64,000 nt of DNA. It comes from Alloascoidea hylecoeti. Lineage: Eukaryota. The translations under genes and the position numbers were made by a program. Below, piece after piece: positions 11,386-62,700 of the stretch. The number at the start of each line of letters is the position of its first letter. The first letter of the stretch is position 1. Under the pieces are notes generated by a model. The model searched no databases. It saw only the letters and a program-made list of their open reading frames with translations, and was not told the DNA's origin. Where the stretch lies: contig BCKZ01000016.1 in NCBI GenBank assembly GCA_001600815.1, forward strand, positions 175,077-239,076, given 5' to 3'.

Positions 11386-11417
11386 GAGGTTTAAAGCAGA
11401 AAAAATAGTTTATCAAA

Positions 11418-11489
11418 TGCCACCTAGCGGAATTGAACCGCCGACCTTTGCATTACAAGTGCAACGCTCTACCACTAAGCTAAGGAGGC
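11418..11489 (-). tRNA. tRNA-Thr(UGU)
   Basis: GCCTCCTTAGCTTAGTGGTAGAGCGTTGCACT-TGT-AATGCAAAGGTCGGCGGTTCAATTCCGCTAGGTGGCA, full cloverleaf; T6 terminator downstream. Confidence 0.96.
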
Positions 11490-11507
11490 ACTTTCGTGGC
11501 CGTTTTA

Positions 11508-11607
11508 NNNNNNNNNNNNNNNNNNNNNNNNNNNNNNNNNNNNNNNNNNNNNNNNNNNNNNNNNNNNNNNNNNNNNNNNNNNNNNNNNNNNNNNNNNNNN
11601 NNNNNNN
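11508..11607. other. Assembly gap (100 N)
   Basis: N run abutting a poly-T tract. Confidence 1.
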
Positions 11608-12374: not shown

Positions 12375-12398
12375 TGCGAACTCTGTGGATCGAACACA

Positions 12399-12440
<42 letters not shown>

Positions 12441-12447
12441 AGTCCGC
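12375..12447 (-). tRNA. tRNA-Phe(GAA), intronless
   Basis: GCGGACTTAGCTCAGTTGGGAGAGCGTCAGACT-GAA-GATCTGAAGGTCCTGTGTTCGATCCACAGAGTTCGCA; T6 terminator follows. Confidence 0.97.
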
Positions 12448-13469: not shown

Positions 13470-14130
13470 TTCAACTTCAAATACGTCTAATAATTCCACA
13501 GATTCTGGAATCGAACTGAGCATCTCAACAATTGAGAAACACCCGCAACATCGTACATTAAAAACCACGTAAGACCCCTTTTGTAAAAACACGCATACGT
13601 AATATTTTCGGCATGTAAAAGGTCTTATCAAAGACTCCTTGTAGTATAAGGACATCTGATTCCGTGTGTCTTATGGCATGGGCTAGAACTTGGAAGGGAA
13701 GATTCACTGTATAGAGGGGTTCCTAGTAGCAGAAAAAAAGGATTTACCACATGTTAACATAAGTTATACAACGTTCGTAAGAGGCCTCTGGTGGCAATGA
13801 TGAGGGTGGAATATTCAAGCTGGATAACAGACCTATCTATAAAGCCAGAATCACAATGAATTGGTTTCGTGAGAAAAGGATAGAGGTGTGAGAGTTTTTT
13901 TCACTGGATCTGAATCTAATTGAGCACATGGGAACCCTTCATAAAATAGTTCACTTGAAGACTGGAATTGAGATTATGCGCCTTCCACATGGTTCATACA
14001 AGAAGAAAGATGTATATTTTAAGTCTTTTTCAAAAGTGGGGCTAATGTAGACCAGGATATCATTGATTGACACCCTGCCTCGTAGGTGGTGGCCGTCTAT
14101 GACGTTAAAGGGGCAAACACTAAATACTAA
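13470..14130 (+). mobile_element. Tc1/mariner transposase pseudogene (DD34E-type)
   Basis: GIFKLDNRPIYKARITMNWFREKRIEV*EFFSLDLNLIEHM and terminal TLPRR...DVKGANTKY* (stop ends 14130). Confidence 0.85.
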
Positions 14131-17360: not shown

Positions 17361-17368
17361 CCGGGTAA
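17361..17368 (-). promoter_or_regulatory. Reb1-type site TTACCCGG; also at 25996, 28293, 29952 and 51738
   Basis: Exact motif upstream of UPS1, NOP56, PBA1/YKE2, COQ9/SFA1 and VPH1. Confidence 0.65.
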
Positions 17369-25921: not shown

Positions 25922-26234
25922 TACAAAATTATATGATAGGGAAAGCTTTAAAAAATTTAGAAAAAAAATTGTGTATTTTTTTTTTTCATGTCAGATTACC
26001 CGGTCCAGAGGCGATTTGGAGATGAGATGGCATAAGCTGTATGTTGCTGCAGTTATGCCATAGAGATGCTGCAGGTTTAAATTAAGGTGTTAATAATATC
26101 GATGAAGTCTATTCTTTTTTGAATATTTAAATAGTATAATTGATTGTGTTTGTTCCTATCCTTATTTGTATTTGTATTTATATATCATTTCTGAAAATAT
26201 AACCTCCCCTGCTATTTTGTTTGTCACTACCATC

Positions 26235-28175: not shown

Positions 28176-28374
28176 TATTACTAACTTTGAGTTTTAGCTA
28201 AATAAATTAAACAAACAGGGTAGAAAACGAAAAGCGATTATGAACTAGATATATATTTTATTCCAAATGGTTGTTTGAATCTGGAAGAAAATTTACCCGG
28301 ATCTAGATATAAAATTGAAATCAGAGCATGGTGAAAAAGTGACCAAGTGACCAGTGAAATCATATCAAGTAGTC

Positions 28375-29829: not shown

Positions 29830-30253
29830 GGTAATATTTTTAATATTTTATATTGACAATTGGTGAGAATGAGATTGTTCTTTAAATTTGGTATAATACT
29901 GATGTTAATTATTGTCAATTGGAAAACAATAATATGCCTAAATTACCGTATTTACCCGGTCATGATCGGCATTTGATATGGTTTGGTCGTTTACTGCAAT
30001 TGGTATATTTACTTTTACTTTTACCTTTATAGACAATGGAGATTTACACAGTTATTAAACTAAACGGTTTTGTAGGCATATGTAATTTTTAGAAGGCATT
30101 AATCTCGTTTCCCCTCATGATCAATTAGTAATAAGATCCAGGATTACACCCACCCACCGGATCGGTTGACATATATTTGATCCAACCTGAGACATTTCCT
30201 CTTCTTTTTTCTTCTCCAGATCAATCCAATTGCCATTATAAATTTATTCAAAA

Positions 30254-46568: not shown

Positions 46569-49500
46569 ATGGTTCTATTGAGTATCAACCAGTTTGATTA
46601 CTACCTCGCCCAGCCAACTGTGTTGGATCCAACTGATCACAATGGGCGAAAATATAGCCATGTTCCAGTTATCAGAATATATGGAAGAACCGAGAAAGGA
46701 ATATTAGGAGTTTGTCACGTGCATGGAATCATCCCATACCTCTATATTCAATCCACCAACTTGAAAGATCCAAATCATTTCAGGGACGCTGAAGCTGATG
46801 TTCATTCGCAGATAGAGAGGGCTCTCAAATCATTTGTTAGAGCTAGCAAGTTTAACGATAATAAGCAGGAATGGAATTTTGTTGGAGGAGTATCAGTGGT
46901 GAAGGCAACACCTTTTTATGGATTTCATCTCTCTCAGAAGTTTGTATTTAAAGTATGGCTTCTTAATCCAACCCATGTGAGGAAAGTTGCTGATTTGATC
47001 TACAGTGGGTCTATTAAGTCACAGTATCTACTTACAGGTCATGGTTCTCATGTGTACGAAGCTCACCTGTCATACTTGCTACAGTTTATGTGTGATTTTA
47101 ACTTACATGGTTGTAACTGGCTACATTGTCAGAAAGCAGTCGCTAGATCTATTCCAGAATCGCAATCCATAGATCTAGATTTGTTGCCAACTTTATACTT
47201 TCCAAAACATGCTAAGACAGATTTGGAGATAGATATAATCCCACAATGGATATTAAACGCAAAGAGTATACAAAAAAGTTCAATTCACAATGGGTTTTCC
47301 GAATTCTTCAACCCATTGGATCCAGAAACTATTTATCTTTCTTCCACCAAAGAGATTTGGAACAACTTAGCTAAGATACGGCGTGAATTGAATATACCGC
47401 TGTATAAGGAGGAACCAAGAATTGCATCATGTTCAAGCTTAGCTAAACATATGGATATGACATGGTACGCACAGGGTGAGTTATTGGAACAGTTTGAACA
47501 ATGTGTAGAAGAAAATACTAGACCGTTCAAAAGACAAGGGATAAAGCCAGATTATGAAAATTTGTCCACAAACTTACCATTTGAAGAACAGGTTGAAAAT
47601 GCGAGTGATAGCCTGTTCCATATACTAAAAACTGATAGTATGATCATGGAGGACTTATTATTGTTAAGAAATAAAGAACAAGCAACTGAAAGCGAAAACA
47701 AGGAAATGAACGAGAGCTTTATTGAGATAGAAAGACTCATAGAAGAAGAAGAAGAAGAAGAAGAAGAAGAAGAAGAAGAGAACGAAATGAAGGAAAATAT
47801 GCTAAACCACCAAAATGAAATCGAGGAATGTTACAAAGATTTAATGGATTTGGTTGAAACCAATGACCCTGGAAGTATATCTTTATCTGATGATGAAGTC
47901 AATAATAAAAGCAGTCATAAATTACCAACTCCAGGTTCTCAACAAAACTCCAGTTACAAAAGACAAGTAAGTATTATCAGTATTTATATCTATTATTAAA
48001 ATATAATAACTTACTAATTTTTTATTGAATTTATAGCACTCATTTCCAACTCAACATCCCTCAAATCTAGTAGTTTCATCTTCTCATTACCATAAACGCC
48101 ACTCATCCACACTTCAGTCAACATCGTTCAAAATTAAAGACATTCATTTAACCTCCCCATTTGTAATTTATTCCCAAGTTCCACCTCATCCATCTTTTAT
48201 ACTTGACGATTTCAAGTATTATCATATCCCTCGACATATCTATCCCGAACCACATTATTCTAAGAAAGATGATGCTCCCAAGAAAAATATTGACTATGCT
48301 GGAGTAAAATTTAATGTTAAAACTGATTCAATTGAAGACCTCGATGACTTTCAATTTGGAGATGAGACGGAACACAAGAGAATAGCCGGAACGGAGTGTT
48401 TCAGACGGATACGGGAACGTAAAAATGAACTTAAACTCTTGAAGAATTTGATGTTTGGAGAAAGCATAGATGTTGACAAACAGGATACAATTAAAACACA
48501 CTGGAGATATGTACATGAACCTCCCACATACGGAGATGTTGTGGATTGGCTACTTAATCTGAAAAACAAGAAAGTCACAAATAGCTTTAGTGATTGCAAC
48601 ATTAATACCAATTTTGATCTTGGTCATATTAACTTGGCTGCGAGTGACAGGAGAACTTTTGATAACACTCAATTGCATACCCCTAGGAAACATCATTTCA
48701 AATACCCAACCCCAAAGAAATACAAACCCCAACAGACCCCGATTGAAAATAATAATAGTTCTTCCTCGTTTTCTAATCCGGACTCCATTTTAAATAATGA
48801 TGTTAATTTCCAAGATATGAGTTTAATGTGCATGGAATTGTTCATCCAAACTCGCGAGGATTATTATCCAGATCCTGAGAAAGATGCTATTAGGGGAATA
48901 TTCTGGAAAATTAGAGATACAAGTTTATTGGATCGATTCGGGATCAGTGAGGAAGAAGGGATTTTAATCTGTCAAAATAACAATAGCGAGGATCAATATA
49001 TTGATGATGACCATCATTTAATAGCGCTTTATGATCAAATATCCACACAAATGCAGATTACAATAGAACATTTTGGCAGCGAAAAGCAAATGCTAGAAAG
49101 ATTAATCGAGTTAGTGAATTTATTAGATCCAGACATTCTCTCCGGCTTTGAAATTCATAAAAGTTCATGGGGATATCTTATCGATAGGGCATCGAAGTTT
49201 CATGATATTGAAATAAATAAAGAATTATCAAGATTATCAGACCTTTCAAAGTTACAATCAGAAAAGAAATTAAAAAAGGGACAATGGGGAAGGAGAATTG
49301 ATAAATGGGGCCTTAAAATAGCATCCGGTCTCAAAGTACAAGGCAGGCATCTTTTAAACGTATGGAGACATTTGAGATCGGACTTAAATTTATTGGGGTA
49401 TTCTTTCGAAAATGTCGTTTTTCATCTGCTCCATGAAAGGGTCCCGCACTACTCTTATAGAACCATGACACAGCTGTTTAACTCACGCTTAACTTCGGAA

Positions 49501-51441
49501 AAAGAACTACTGATAAGACATATCATAAAAATAGTAAGATTATCTTTAATTATCATTGATACTCAGAGGTTAATCTCGAGAACAGAAGAACAAGCGCGAT
49601 TAATTGGCATTGACTTTTATTCAGTTTTCACAAGGGGATCCCAATATAATGTTGAATCTTTATTATTTCGTTTAACCAAAGCCGAAAATTATATCTTATT
49701 ATCACCCTCGAAAAAGCAGGTGTCCAAGCAAGATGCATTAGAATGCTTGCCTTTGGTGATGGAGCCAGAATCTAAATTTTACACATCCCCTTTGGTTGTT
49801 TTAGATTTCCAAAGTTTATATCCATCAGTTATGATTGCCTATAATTACTGTTATTCAACCTGCCTAGGAAGGTTAAAGAATAATATATCCTCTCATAGTA
49901 AAAATAAGTTAGGAGTCGAGACAAATTTAAATATACCCTCGGGATTATTGGAGTTATTAAAAAATGATATAACAATATCACCCAACGGTCTGATGTTTGT
50001 TAAACCAACAATTAGAAAGTCAACTTTATCAAAATTGTTAGCCGAAATGTTAGATACTCGAATAATGGTTAAATCTGCAATGTCTAAATATCCATCAACA
50101 GAGTTAGAATTGAAAAAGACAGCAGACAATAGGCAATTAGCCTTAAAACTTATAGCTAATGTCACTTATGGATATACGGCAGCTACATTTTCGGGTCGAA
50201 TGCCATGCACGGAAATTGCTGATAGTATTGTTCAAACAGGAAGAGAGACTCTAGAGAAAGCAATTGATTTGATTCAAAGTAACGAAGATAAATGGGGCGG
50301 ACAAGTTGTGTACGGTGATACCGATTCCTTGTTTATAAACTTCCCAGGAAAATCTAAAGAGGATGCTTTCAAAATTGGAAAGGAAATTGCAAACAAAGTA
50401 ACCTCCATGAATCCTGAACCAATAAAATTAAAATTTGAGAAGGTTTACCACCCATGTATACTATTAGCCAAAAAACGATATGTTGGTTACTCATACGAAT
50501 CTGAAGATCAGAAGGTGCCCAAGTTTGATGCTAAGGGCATTGAAACTGTTAGAAGAGACGGAACTCCAGCACAACAGAAGATAGTGGAGAAGACGTTGAA
50601 AATTTTATTTGATACAACTGATTTATCGGCAGTTAAACGGTATATAACTGACCAGTTCTCAAAAATAATGCTGGGCACGGTATCGGTTCACGATTTTTGT
50701 TTTGCAAAAGAGGTTAAATTAGGTACTTATAAAAAAAGTGGTAATATCCCTCCTGGTGCCCTATTATCTGCACAAAAAACGGAAGAAGATCAACGTGCCG
50801 AGCCGGAGTTTAAGGAGCGGATCCGATATGTTGTTATTAAGAAGAAATTGGGTACACGATTAAAAGATCGTTGCGTCTTGCCATCCACAATGATTAATGA
50901 TGCCTCATTGCAATTGGACAGTGCTTACTATATCGAAAAGAACATTATACCCCCATTGGAAAGAATTTTCAATGTTATGGGAGTTAACGTTAAACAATGG
51001 TACGATGACATGCCAAAGATGTCTTCATTACAACCTACTGCTGCAGTCCCATCACTGGTAGAAGAATCACTGACAACAATATCTACTGATCTTGACAATA
51101 ATAAATATTTGCACACCTTTACACAATCTCAAACTTGTGTTTCTTGTCATGAACCATTGGAGATTGATGATAAATGTTCAAGCTTATGCCCTTCCTGTTT
51201 ATCTTCAAAAGATACAGCTATTAATAACTTGATGCTTCGTGTTAAAATACATGAGAAACAGTATTTTGAAATTGAATCGTTGTGCCGGTTTTGTATCAAT
51301 ACATCACATGGAACGAATCATACGGTTCAGTGCACATCAGAGGATTGCCCTTTATATTACAAAAGAGTGAGAACGAAGAGAAGATTAGAGTTATGTAAAC
51401 TTATGGAAGTGAGGACACTGGAAGAATTATCAGACTGGTGA
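46569..51441 (+). CDS. REV3: DNA polymerase zeta catalytic subunit; intron 47967-48036
   Basis: VPVIRIYG, LDFQSLYPS, KLIANVTYGY, YGDTDS, C-terminal Cys motifs; intron GTAAGT..TACTAAT..TAG joins the two track ORFs in frame. Confidence 0.96.
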
Positions 51442-51598
51442 AATTTCATCGCAAAAAGTGTATTTTCAGCTTGAGATAACTTATAATTACAACTTAAAGT
51501 CATATGATTTTGCCCAAACCTGTAGATTTTGAGATTTGAATGATTGTAGAATAATATAACTCTTTTGCCATGGTAATAATTAGTTAGCTAATAGCTAT

Positions 51599-51724
51599 TA
51601 TGAGCAGCCCGGTTCTAATAATCAAGGTGAAAACATCCAATCTGGTGAGGATCGAACCTGCGACCTGCATTTGTATTAAGAATGGCGCAGGGAACGGAAC
51701 TTTCTACTAAATATGGCCGAAACC
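51599..51724 (-). ncRNA. Divergent 5S rRNA-derived sequence with internal tRNA-type B-box (pseudogene or novel Pol III locus)
   Basis: GGTTTCGGCCATATTTAGTAGAAAGTTCCGTTCCCTG matches the recalled S. cerevisiae 5S 5' end at 29/37 ungapped; later anchors CCTCACC, TTGGATG, TCACC, GCTGC; GGTTCGATCC at 51658-51649. Confidence 0.6.
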
Positions 51725-51809
51725 GAAGATCTAAATGTTACCCGGAAATGTTGTTTATATTCCAATGTCTCTTCATTGTCCTTCGGTTCATCTAATACCT
51801 CCATATATA

Positions 51810-54573
51810 ATGACTGGAGAGGAAGCTATTTTCCGTAAGTACCAAATACCATTTCCTTTTTATTACGCCTCAGAGGCTTATAGAAATATATTTCTGTCAC
51901 CATCTCTTAAAATGTTTGACATCAGAAGGATGAAAAGAAGATGAAACCTTTATTCTCATTGTCCAACCTTATGATCAATACTAAATGAAAATTATTCTAG
52001 GCTCTGCGGAAATGACACTCGTTCAATTTTACTTTACAAAAGAAACAGTTAGAGATATTGTGTCTGCACTTGGTGAACTTGGCCTTGTCCAGTTTCGTGA
52101 CTTAAATGCGAAGGTAAATGCGTTTCAACGAAGCTTTGTGAAGGAAATTAGAAGACTTGATAACACCGAAAGACAGTTGCGTAAGTTAAGAAATGCCTGT
52201 GTATAATCTGGGTTAATACTAACATTCATTTCAAAAGGATTATTTGCTACTGAGATTTCAAGCCATGGCTTAGTTGTAGGACCATCTCCATATCAGGATG
52301 ACCTTACAGCCCCCAAACCTGGTGATATAGATGATCTAGTTCAAAGCGCACAATTTTTAGAACAAAGACTGAATGAGTTGCTCGAAAACTCTGAGGATTT
52401 GCAAAAGAAGAAAATGCAGTTACTTGAAAGGAGATATGTACTAAATACTGCGGATAATTTCTTTGCTCGAGCAAATGAAGACCCAAAACTTGCAAGAGTA
52501 TCACTGGACACAGATGTCAGCGATTCTGCACCCTTATTGCTGGATGACCACTTAGAACAAGGTAACGGTAACAGCAACGGTAACAGCAACGGTAACAGCA
52601 ACGGGGGTGAACATCATTTGGCTAGGTCCTCAACACTGCAGAATATTAATTTTGTTTCAGGTGTGATCGCTCGTAATAAGATTGCTTCAATGGAGAAAAT
52701 ATTATGGAGAACATTAAGAGGTAACTTGTATCTCTATCAATCTGAAATCCAAGAACCTATTTATGATCCAAGCACCAAGAAGGATATCGACAAAAATGTT
52801 TTTATTGTTTTTTCCCATGGTTCCGAAATCATCTCTAAAATCAAGCGTATTGTGGATGCCTTAGACGGTGACTTGTATACTGTTGACCAAAGTAGAGATT
52901 TGCGTAAGGAAGAACTTCAAGAACTAAACACCAACCTTGATGAAGTAAACACTGTCCTCGGAAACACAAATTTGGTGCTTCATACCGAATTGTCTTTAGT
53001 CGCTGAAAAATTGACTAACTGGTCTGTTACGATTAAAAAGGAAAAAGCAATCTATGGAGCACTGAACCTTTTTAACTATGATCAACAAAGAAAGTGTTTG
53101 ATTGCTGAAGGTTGGGTTCCAAAAGATGACATTGATCGTATCAAAACAACTTTAAGAAATGCCGCAGAACGTATTGGTTCGGAACCACCTGGTATGATAG
53201 AGTTGGAGACAAATAGATCCCCGCCAACTTTTCATAGAACTAATAAGTTCACAAGCGCTTTTCAATCCATTTGCGACGCCTATGGAATTGCTAGCTATAG
53301 GGAAGTTAACCCCGGCTTACCTACTATTGTAACATTCCCTTTTATGTTTGCAATTATGTTTGGTGATTTGGGTCATGGATTTGTTATGTCGTTGGCCGCC
53401 TTAGTTTTAGTCCTTAACGAGAAAAAAATTGGTGCTATGAAGAATAGGGATGAGATCTTTGATATGGCCTACTCTGGTCGTTATATCCTACTATTGATGG
53501 GAACTTTTTCGATGTATACAGGTTTCTTATACAATGATATATTTTCTAAAACTATGACAATTTTCCAGTCAGGATGGTCATGGCCTGATAGTTGGGAATT
53601 AGGTGAAACTATCTTTGCTCACCAGACTGGTGTGTACTCATTTGGTTTAGATCCAGCATGGCATGGAACCGAGAATTCTCTGATTTTCTCCAATTCGTAT
53701 AAAATGAAGCTTTCTATTTTGATGGGGTTTATTCATATGTCTTATAGTTATATGTTCTCATTGGTTAATCATTTACATTTCAAGTCACCAATTGACATCA
53801 TTGGAAATTTCATTCCTGGTTTACTTTTCATGCAAGGTATTTTCGGCTACCTATCCATTTGTATTGTTTACAAATGGTCTGTCGATTGGATTAGCATTGG
53901 TAAACCGGCACCTGGTTTACTCAACATGTTGATTTCTATGTTTTTATCACCAGGGACAGTTACTGAAGAGCTTTACCCAGGACAAGCACGACTTCAGGTT
54001 TTCCTAGTTATACTTGCACTCATCTGCATTCCGTGGTTATTGCTTCTGAAACCTTTATATTTTCGACATAAAATTAATCAAAAAAATCAACACCAATATC
54101 AACAATTAACAGAAACTTCGGGAAATAATGGTATTTCTGGAGAACTTGAACAAGAGATCGATGATGAAGAAGAAGGACATCATGAAGAATTTGGTGACAT
54201 AATGATACATCAAGTTATTCATACAATTGAATTTTGTTTGAATTGTGTCTCGCACACAGCCTCTTATCTTCGTTTATGGGCGTTGTCTCTTGCTCACGCA
54301 CAATTGTCATCTGTGTTATGGACGATGACGATTCAGAATGCCTTCTCCACGACCGGTACACTTGGCGTCATTATGACTGTTCTTCTTTTTGCCATGTGGT
54401 TTAGTTTAACAATTTGCATTTTGGTTGTTATGGAAGGTACATCAGCAATGTTACATTCACTTCGTTTGCATTGGGTTGAGTCGATGTCGAAGTTCTTTGA
54501 AGGTGAGGGAACTTTATTTGTTCCTTTTTCCTTTGAACAGGCTTTACAAGAAGATGAAGAAGCATCAACATAA
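51810..54573 (+). CDS. VPH1: V-ATPase V0 subunit a; exons 51810-51834, 52001-52180, 52238-54573
   Basis: Spliced [49 protein letters not shown]. Confidence 0.93.
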
Positions 54574-59790: not shown

Positions 59791-62700
59791 TTATGATTTT
59801 GATTTTGATTTTGATTTTGATTTTGCTAATATCATAGAAAGCAGAGTTCCTTCACCTGCCAAAGATAAAAAATCTGAAGTAGTCACTGATACTTGTGTAA
59901 GATCAGTCGTCGTTTTAGATTCATCTGATAATACCATAAAATCTTCATCATTTATATTCCCGTTATTGAGTGCTTCAACATTTTTCGAGGTGACTATTTC
60001 ATCTGACTGTTTATTATTTGGGTTTTCGACAGTTAGTGATAAATTATATTGAGAGGTTTTGTCACGAATAGGAGTAATAGAGGTGCTCACATTTGATGAC
60101 ATTCCGTTAGCTGGGTTTATATCAGCTACAGAATTAATTATGATTTGATCTGTTTTCTTTGGTTGTTGAACTTGTTGAACCTGTTGAGCATGCTCTTGAA
60201 GCGCCTGCTGTTGTTGTGCTTGTTGTTGTGCTTGTTGTTGTGCTTGTTGTTGTGCTTGTTGTTGTGCTTGTTGTTGTGCTTGTTGTTGTGCTTGTTGTTG
60301 TGCTTGTTGTTGNNNNNNNNNNNNNNNNNNNNNNNNNNNNNNNNNNNNNNNNNNNNNNNNNNNNNNNNNNNNNNNNNNNNNNNNNNNNNNNNNNNNNNNN
60401 NNNNNNNNNNNNGCTTGTTGTTGTGCTTGTTGTTGTGCTTGTTGTTGTGCTTGTTGTTGTGCTTGTTGTTGTGCTTGTTGTTGTGCTTGTTGTTGTGCTT
60501 GTTGTTGAATCCAATGCACTTGTTGAACTTGCTGAGCCTGTTGCTGAGTCTGTAGCTGAGTCTGTAGCTGAGCCTGTAGCTGAGCCTGTTGCTGAGCCTG
60601 TTGCTGAGCCTGTTGCTGAGCCTGTTGCTGAGCCTGTTGCTGAGCCTGTTGCTGAGCCTGTTGCTGAGCCTGTTGTAAATATATTGCATTTTCTCGTTTA
60701 AGGAGCTCACTAAGAAGATTCTGAATCATACCAAATAATAAGACACCATATTCTTTGTTTGAGATAGATTGCAGAATTAATTGATATCGGGTCCTTAGGG
60801 ATGTTGAAGGATCAAGTGCGTCAAGATTGGATAACTGATGCCGGATAAATTCCGACGGAATAGTAGCAACTCCTTCCCCCTTCAGAGAATTTATGATTTG
60901 AAGAAGGGGATATACCAGAGATGACCTGGATTTAATCTGCTTGATTGAATTTGTTGTACAAAGAGCAATAAAATTGTCAAACTCTTGTTCTTTTGTTCTT
61001 AGAGATGAAGTTTCAACACTAGACCCTGGTTGGTTTGTCATATCCACTGGTGGATTAACTCCCCGTGATTTATTCTGTGTATGTGTAGGTACTTTTATAG
61101 GGTTGAAATCCCTAGATATCTGTGAATTCATTTGTGGTCGTGTATTGCTTATATAATTTTGATGTTGCAACGTCTCTGACGGTTGTTGAAGTAAGGGCTG
61201 TTCGACTGAATATCCTTGATGTTGAGGTTGAGTCAAAATTGGTCTATTGTAACTATTTTGAGTGGTTGAACCCCCAATCTGAGGCTGTTGTGGCTGTGAT
61301 GGAGAGTGACGATTTCCCATATTACTGGAGCGTTGAATACTGGCTTGATGCAGGTTCCGAGATTTAGACATTCGTGTTTTAGCCGTGTTTAACTGTTCCG
61401 CTTCGGATTTTAATTGATTTATCAATTTATTAAAAATATTGAGTAATTCTACATTTCCTTTGCTTGATTTGGAGAGTAGGCCAACACGATTCGCTTCATA
61501 TTCCTGTATCTTCTGTTTAAGTGTTTCCAATCGTATGTCTAATAATGCTATATCTGAAAGATTGACTATCGTCTGAGTTACCGATGGAGTTATTGGCTGC
61601 TGATTACTTCCAACAAACGTAACGTTTTTAGAGGATTGGGGCAACGTCTCGTTTATAGCAGAAGTATCCGAAGAATGTCTTGTTATAATGGTATTGGGAG
61701 TGGTATTCGTCAGTGGTGATGGGTTGTGGATCCCTAAACTAGAGTGTCTAGGATTTTGATTCTGCACTGGAAATTTTGGGGATGAAGTTGTCACCGTGTT
61801 GTATCGGGAATTAATTTCATTTGCAGAATTCTGACGTTGATGTTGGATAGGGTTGTTGGACATCAGAATATTGGGACTATTCGTCTGTGTTTGATTTTGA
61901 TTATCTGATGAAACCATTACGCCATTACTTATGGAGGACTCGATGAAAGATCGGTCTCTGCCATTTTCGCCTGTTTTATGAGAAGCTTTACGATTAAATA
62001 ATGATCTTGATGAATCCGAATAATTATTAAAATTTTGGCTAGTCTGTTGAGGTACCGGGATATTTCGATGTTTGTTGGTGTTCATTTTTTCAGATCGATT
62101 TGTTTCATTTTGTTCAGATTGAGCTTGGTTCATAGAAATATCAGCATCTGCTTGATTTAGTTCTGAAAATATAACTTTATTTGGTACATACTCAGCATTA
62201 CCTTCCCTAGGTGGCTGTGAGGAAACTTCCCTTATTTCTTCATTGAAGAGGAAATACTTTGGGTCTACTTTTGGATTGGATTCATTCTTAACCCTCTGTT
62301 TTTTGAGTCTTTTAACAAAAAATGGTTCTATTCTTGACTTAAATCTGTAAGTTTTGTTCTTCAAGTCAGGTGAAGTAATCAAGTTATCATCTTTATCATA
62401 GATTTCATTGCAAATAAAGATAGGAGCCATCACAATTCGTATATTTTCAGGGATATTATAACAAACTGGTCCATCTTCCTCTAATGTAGTGTTTATGCCA
62501 CGAAGAAAAGAGGCAACTCGAGGACCTTTTAATAGGGAGCACGAGCATAAAATTTCTTCCAATTCATCAGGGTATTGTCCTTTACAGGAAGATTCTTCAT
62601 CTTCATCCAATATTATAACCTCCCTATTAGTCACAGGTTTAATGAATTCAGAATTTAAACTGCTTAGCTGCTCAACTGGAGGCATGGGAGATTTGTTGGA

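Follow-up and report, generated by a model that had tools for sequence, protein, structure and literature searches.

Scattered 5S rRNA genes have been counted in several yeasts, and the sections of the literature used here give 116 of them for Y. lipolytica, 30 for B. raffinosifermentans and 36 for T. vanleenenianus (PMC13130702). In T. vanleenenianus every 5S gene stands 1-3 bp after a tRNA gene (PMC13130702, PMC2566860), and in these tRNA-5S genes the tRNA and the 5S behind it are both complete and functional (PMC13130702). Decayed copies have been described as well: seven pseudo-5S genes are given for Y. lipolytica CLIB89 (PMC5014426), and truncated 5S copies in filamentous fungi are classed as pseudogenes (PMC5555474, citing Rooney and Ward 2005). 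A tRNA-like promoter and 5S have also been combined artificially in the RPR1-promoter::5S fusion of Camier and co-workers, in which a promoter with A- and B-box, placed upstream of a complete 5S, works with it as one Pol III unit (PMC2566860). S. cerevisiae has ETC sites, whose definition rests on measured TFIIIC occupancy and on conservation (PMC4228148, PMC12409998), and the excerpts of PMC4228148 report that in this yeast ETC sites, ZOD1 and tDNAs affect both the 5'-UTR length and the read-through of Pol II genes beside them. ETC sites are not known to carry 5S-derived sequence, which goes unmentioned in the sections of PMC4228148 and PMC12409998 used here.

The element described here was found in Alloascoidea hylecoeti, within a 64-kb stretch of AT-rich yeast DNA (34% G+C) that was analysed over its whole length and is called the window below. 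It is located on the minus strand of the spacer between the genes REV3 and VPH1, and from its sequence we consider it reasonably probable that it is a 3'-truncated 5S relic next to what is left of a tRNA gene, and as such gene debris of a familiar sort, not an active RNA gene.

Results

The spacer between REV3 and VPH1

REV3 (5') and VPH1 (3') follow each other in tandem on the plus strand and are separated by 368 bp, beginning at the REV3 stop codon. The ORF just upstream of the spacer (48451..51441, plus strand) codes for the C-terminal part of REV3, the catalytic subunit of DNA polymerase zeta, and contains the Pfam domains zf-C4pol and DNA_pol_B (3e-108). The ORF preceding it (46569-47999, plus strand) carries the N-terminal domains, including REV3_N according to Pfam. 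REV3 is split over these two ORFs, and the gap of about 450 bases between them may reflect an intron, a frameshift or a weakly conserved linker. Downstream of the spacer, the main ORF of VPH1 was located at 52414-54573 (plus strand; Pfam V_ATPase_I, 3.8e-294). A tblastn comparison with three VPH1 relatives placed exon 1, coding for MTGEEAIF and contributing the first base of the codon for R, at 51810..51834 (plus strand), directly before a GTAAGT intron, and splicing of this exon yields an N-terminus that agrees with the relatives. VPH1 has two introns near its 5' end and an exon 1 of only 25 bases; intron 1 covers 51835-~51996, and intron 2 corresponds to a gap of about 57 bases near 52180 that appears in tblastn as an insertion keeping the frame but containing a stop codon. 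The nearest named relatives of VPH1 are those of Nadsonia, Sugiyamaella and Geotrichum (63-66% identity only), which assigns the organism to an early-branching lineage of the budding yeasts, and as a matter of context the VPH1 relatives would place the organism near yeasts with scattered 5S genes (Yarrowia, Blastobotrys, Trichomonascus).

The VPH1 ATG at 51810 is located 86 bp from the 5S-like +1 at 51724, just as an earlier reading made from the letters of this DNA (the sequence-only reading) had stated, and the Reb1-type site TTACCCGG that it had placed 13 bp upstream of the 5S-like +1 is present in the VPH1 promoter at 51738..51745 (plus strand). This octamer occurs 5 times in the window, compared with 0.72 expected, and at least five occurrences were obtained in 0 of 100 shuffles; the sites are at 17361-17368 (minus), 25996-26003 (plus), 28293-28300 (plus), 29952-29959 (plus) and 51738-51745 (plus). 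Because of this excess, Reb1-like promoter sites seem to be really used in Alloascoidea hylecoeti.

A 5S-like head on the minus strand

Reference 5S sequences came from metagenome contigs, which were searched with a pattern of the element's first 25 bases, five positions being left open. This yielded 47 loci, all of them canonical yeast 5S; among these 47 no element-like copy was present, and ARAGORN called no tRNA gene in them. Two metagenome contigs from other yeasts (L008 and L015) carry 5S copies with internal deletions, in which position ~38 or ~50 is joined to a later part, which marks them either as pseudogenes or as artefacts of assembly. A profile was built from 9 distinct full-length real yeast 5S sequences and when the window was searched with it by nhmmer, 51683..51724 on the minus strand aligned from 51724 to 51683 with model positions 1-42, starting exactly at the 5S +1 (19.2 bits, E 3.8e-5, a score somewhat inflated because the references were picked with a pattern from the element itself). 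This head of a 5S rRNA gene is the sole significant 5S match in the window, the second-best having an E of 2.3, and its score was reached by 0 of 1000 dinucleotide shuffles. Identity to the closest of the 9 real yeast 5S sequences is 31/37 and 33/42, and the 29/37 identity to a Saccharomyces-type 5S that had been claimed for the minus strand from 51724 was reproduced. The head also has differences of its own, for example a T at position 5.

As a control, positions 26-42, which the retrieval pattern leaves unfixed, were considered separately: 11 of 17 are identical to real 5S, a value that 42 of the 127,502 17-mers of the window reach (0.03%). Directly upstream of +1 the element has TTC (51725..51727, minus strand) as start-site context, and its TC at -2/-1 is shared with 27 of 27 distinct upstream flanks of real 5S genes. 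Since the likeness reaches upstream of the RNA start, a gene fragment is favoured over a copy of the RNA. Local G+C is 0.42-0.47 at the element and 0.27-0.38 in its flanks; such a rise is typical of Pol III gene sequence.

These observations bear on whether ordinary VPH1 promoter DNA might resemble a 5S 5' end and a B-box by chance, which we judge improbable. Such a coincidence would find room in the E value, as 3.8e-5 per 64 kb amounts to roughly 0.006-0.015 for an assumed genome of 10-25 Mb, and when very many windows are scanned a few matches of this kind are to be expected; moreover, the references owe their retrieval to the element. However, the similarity sets in precisely at model position 1 and extends into the conserved TC, the positions left free by the retrieval pattern are also alike, and the local G+C content rises, none of which speaks for a coincidence.

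5S similarity ends at position 42

Beyond position 42 no 5S similarity above chance was detected. When positions 43-135 of the element were aligned with positions 43-121 of 5S with free ends, 678 of 1000 shuffles scored as well, and for strict collinear alignment of the element tail to 5S between 33 and 380 of 1000 shuffles were as good, depending on the end chosen, so that the lowest figure (33/1000) loses its weight once the choice of end point is allowed for. The later 5S anchors that the sequence-only reading had seen at offsets of +7 and +5 are, by these shuffle tests of the tail, no more than chance. That reading had also proposed a significant match to a 5S covariance model as a check, and this turned out negative: Rfam 5S (RF00001) gave no match at gathering score in the whole window, which by Rfam has no 5S gene elsewhere either, and searches of 551 and of 146 bases surrounding the element yielded neither 5S nor tRNA at E<=10. 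The blank covariance models can be counted in favour of a chance resemblance. Homology along the whole 5S of about 120 nt, including A-box, intermediate element and C-box, was not found, as only model positions 1-42 align. These three boxes are the type I promoter elements of 5S (PMC12409998, in the section used here). The description of the element as 5S-derived holds for about -3 to +42 and does not hold for a whole 5S copy with an insertion, as the tail is at chance.

The edge at +42 is abrupt, with identity dropping from about 79% to none. Because such a sharp edge is unlike the even decay of a whole gene, a rearrangement must be assumed. For RNAs of 126 nt and 95 nt from the element, the folding energy equals that of shuffled sequence (z 0.29 and 0.09); the CCUGCG/CGCAGG hairpin that had been proposed does appear in the minimum-energy fold, though it carries no statistical weight. 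A further suggestion, that the element acts as a decoy for L5 or TFIIIA, is unlikely, since the part of 5S with the type I promoter elements and most helices is absent.

A tRNA-like piece with a B-box

Downstream of the head, an 18-nt piece (AGGTC-GCAGG-TTCGATC-C, 51649..51666, minus strand) has the layout of variable loop, 5' strand of the T-stem and T-loop as in the Rfam tRNA consensus. The B-box GGTTCGATCCT extends from 51658 to 51648 (minus strand) and fits both the consensus GWTCRANNC, as given in the sections of PMC2566860 and PMC4228148 used here, and the stricter GGTTCGANNCY. The longer sequence GGTCGCAGGTTCGATCC was located at 51665-51649. Where the sequence-only reading had seen a perfect B-box/T-loop motif, the B-box was confirmed and the T-arm was not, because the 3' strand of the T-stem reads CTCAC instead of the pairing sequence CCTGC. 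The T-stem is therefore unclosed: the 3 differences from the pairing sequence are all transitions, and 3 of 5 positions pair, one of them as G-T. No tRNA was called at the element with Rfam RF00005 or with ARAGORN at default settings.

With a relaxed ARAGORN setting (80% thresholds, introns allowed), a tRNA-Cys was reported at 51632-51714, which we regard as noise because with this setting the window yields 109 calls, 2 of them real. A possible tRNA relic at 13496-13569 was rejected as well, being without Rfam support.

On the minus strand downstream of the element the only T runs are a T4 and a T5, the latter at 51457-51453 and 268 bases from the start. The T4 run (51630..51633, +92 to +95) begins three bases past the expected tRNA 3' end and may be a weak or decayed Pol III terminator. 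By comparison, both real tRNA genes of the window (n=2) have T6 terminators: tRNA-Thr(TGT) at 11417-11490 (minus) has its T6 13 bases past the 3' end, and tRNA-Phe(GAA) at 12375-12447 (minus), about 900 bases away on the same strand, has it 4 bases past the 3' end. Two runs of 100 N (11508-11607 and 60313-60412) resemble scaffold gaps, and the first of them lies 18 bases upstream of the tRNA-Thr gene. A terminator like those of its own tRNA genes is thus lacking at the element, which has T4 in place of T6.

Given its layout, the 18-nt piece together with the T run is probably the remnant of the 3' half of a tRNA gene, although a fortuitous B-box in VPH1 promoter DNA must again be weighed here. 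The strict B-box occurs once in the window, compared with 0.26 expected, and is found at least once in 21 of 100 shuffled windows, a frequency at which chance might well provide it. What chance explains less easily is that this strict B-box lies on the same strand and less than 70 bases from the 5S-like head, with a T run at a tRNA-like distance behind it.

Layout of a possible Pol III unit

A TATAAA motif (51754..51759, minus strand) occupies -35 to -30 relative to the 5S-like +1. Such a motif carries little information in AT-rich DNA; it may be left over from a TFIIIB/TBP site or may belong to the core promoter of VPH1. ATATA-like runs occur near -30 in several real 5S flanks. At +16 to +25 the A-box-like TAGTAGAAAG (51700..51709, minus strand) is one base short of TRGYnnAnnnG, the A-box consensus in the excerpt of PMC2566860 used here. 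This motif is inherited from 5S, as real 5S genes have TAGCAGAAAG or TACCAGAAAG there. The B-box lies at +68, so that the spacing from the A-box-like motif to the B-box is 41-42 bp.

This arrangement suggests that the locus might be a functional TFIIIC or Pol III locus, in which the 5S stub would provide TATA, start and A-box-like motif and the tRNA-like piece the B-box, and in which TFIIIC, perhaps joined by TFIIIB and Pol III, would occupy the spacer; we consider this unlikely, though less so than a chance resemblance or a mobile element. Together with the Reb1 site, such a locus would stop read-through from REV3 and fix the VPH1 start site; alternatively, a short ncRNA would be made, of about 95 nt if it stopped at T4 or about 270 nt if it stopped at T5. 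Several observations are in line with a functional locus. Its B-box satisfies the minimal and the strict consensus; the B-box is the main determinant of TFIIIC binding, with a nanomolar affinity of tauB for it, according to the parts of PMC12409998 and PMC4228148 used here; the spacing of 41-42 bp is inside the 32-93 bp given there for type II promoters of S. cerevisiae (PMC12409998); and TATAAA is suitably placed. The tight tandem spacer is also a place where a block would be useful, and the influence of ETC sites, ZOD1 and tDNAs on Pol II neighbours in S. cerevisiae offers a precedent (PMC4228148). Against these stand the T4 in place of T6, an RNA structure no better than that of shuffles, and an A-box motif that is one base off the consensus and simply normal 5S sequence at this place; apart from the B-box, the motifs are poor in information. 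Furthermore, the minimal B-box consensus is common, with 36 occurrences in the window and 25 expected, and the Reb1 site alone suffices for a normal promoter boundary. Taken for themselves, the T4-only run and the absent RNA structure argue against a normal Pol III gene.

A more specific proposal, built on the same motifs, is that a hybrid Pol III promoter arose accidentally from two gene wrecks, the start-site and upstream part of a 5S gene and the B-box of a tRNA gene, was kept, and recruits TFIIIC and perhaps TFIIIB and Pol III, which we regard as rather doubtful. It would then act, beside Reb1, as a roadblock and insulator that keeps the terminator of REV3 apart from the promoter of VPH1, or as the promoter of a new short ncRNA, a role that we see as equally doubtful. 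A site of this kind would be ETC-like, with its descent from 5S and tRNA genes still legible.

A snoR38-like C/D-box match at 51423-51511 (minus strand) reached 20.1 bits in Rfam, compared with a gathering score of 45, at E 1.5. It was considered as a snoRNA that Pol III would transcribe behind a leader, as with SNR52, and was rejected as probably spurious since it overlaps the REV3 stop, contains a T5 run and has a poor C box.

Copies, sequencing runs and relatives

Another assembly of the same organism is identical to positions 50800-52800 of the window over 2001 bases. Among the 27,261 contigs of that assembly (some contigs having been filtered), no second copy of at least 80% likeness was found, and no target-site duplications, terminal repeats or direct repeats flank the element. 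Contigs of two other organisms, compared with 50800-52800, gave only two fragments of 35-36 bases with 4-6 mismatches, both off the element. One metatranscriptome gave no alignment with 50800-52800. These comparisons say nothing about expression or conservation. Four sequencing runs contain the stretch, and 0 of these 4 are recorded as RNA; this, like the lack of a relative among the sequences compared, weighs against a functional locus.

The single copy is also relevant to an origin by retroposition. The element might be the one copy of a mobile element headed by 5S or tRNA sequence, either a SINE or a TRIM like Cassandra, Helenus or Ajax, or it might be a retro-copy made by template switching between tRNA and 5S, all of which appears very improbable to us. 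Heads derived from small RNAs are known in non-autonomous retroelements, and Helenus, with a tRNA-like head, occurs in fungi (PMC10886601, in the part used here); the exact start at +1 would be accounted for if a template switch had run on to the 5' terminus of 5S RNA. However, a retro-copy would not carry the TC upstream of +1, and for a mobile element one misses other copies among the contigs of the other assembly, target-site duplications or terminal repeats, a CCA or A-rich tail after the tRNA-like part, and the 5S internal promoter that SINEs with a 5S head need.

Discussion

The truncated relic that we favour would have arisen as follows. A 5S rRNA gene would formerly have been present in the REV3-VPH1 spacer, pointing away from VPH1, and its immediate upstream context and its first 42 bases would be all that survives of it. 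From about +43 the body of the gene would have been lost or replaced, and with it the internal promoter and most helices. The replacing DNA would consist of the 18-base stretch resembling a variable loop and T-arm, followed at the right distance by the short T run; this remnant of a tRNA gene, as its layout suggests, was probably joined to the 5S stub by deletion or rearrangement. The site may still attract TFIIIC by way of its B-box, because TFIIIC binding depends mainly on this box, and any such residual attraction would be a by-product.

Some features count against a relic. The B-box is very well preserved beside a degraded T-stem, and TATAAA, A-box-like motif and B-box, the latter two at a spacing usual for type II promoters, resemble a full type II arrangement that would not have to persist in a random relic. 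The abrupt edge at +42, for which a rearrangement has to be invoked, and the use of the element's own pattern to retrieve the 5S references count against it as well.

If the element is a relic, it matters little in itself and marks a site where a 5S gene once stood. It would suggest that in a sparsely sampled yeast lineage 5S genes lie, or once lay, outside the rDNA, as in Yarrowia and its relatives. For the search of such remnants it is of practical importance that covariance models miss stubs that retain only the 5' end of the gene, and that a plain sequence profile finds them. Should occupancy and conservation of the B-box be demonstrated, the locus would illustrate how dead Pol III genes can give rise to extra-TFIIIC sites, and it would be a simple natural test case for TFIIIC and Reb1 separating two close tandem Pol II genes.

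Comparison with known systems

Like the ETC sites and ZOD1 of S. cerevisiae, the element has its B-box in a Pol II spacer, away from any working tRNA gene, and it might bind TFIIIC and affect transcription of its Pol II neighbours. The likeness goes no further than this B-box; ETC sites owe their definition to occupancy and conservation. In the RPR1-promoter::5S fusion the promoter is upstream of a complete 5S, while in the element the B-box is downstream of a 42-base stub (PMC2566860, in the section used here).

With the tRNA-5S genes the element shares a tRNA-type promoter motif and 5S sequence on one strand and in one short unit. Unlike in these genes, the order is reversed, with the 5S head first and the T-arm after it, neither part is complete, and the DNA immediately preceding the 5S +1 does not resemble a tRNA, which rules out that the element is a tRNA-5S gene.

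The element most resembles the truncated 5S pseudogenes of fungi, as its 5S homology is partial, neither coding region nor fold is intact, and it stands alone between protein genes, the pattern by which truncated pseudogenes are recognised; it would belong with the pseudogenes of scattered 5S families if Alloascoidea hylecoeti has such a family. It differs from the truncated pseudogenes in that it keeps only the first 42 bases of 5S and that these adjoin a tRNA-like B-box.
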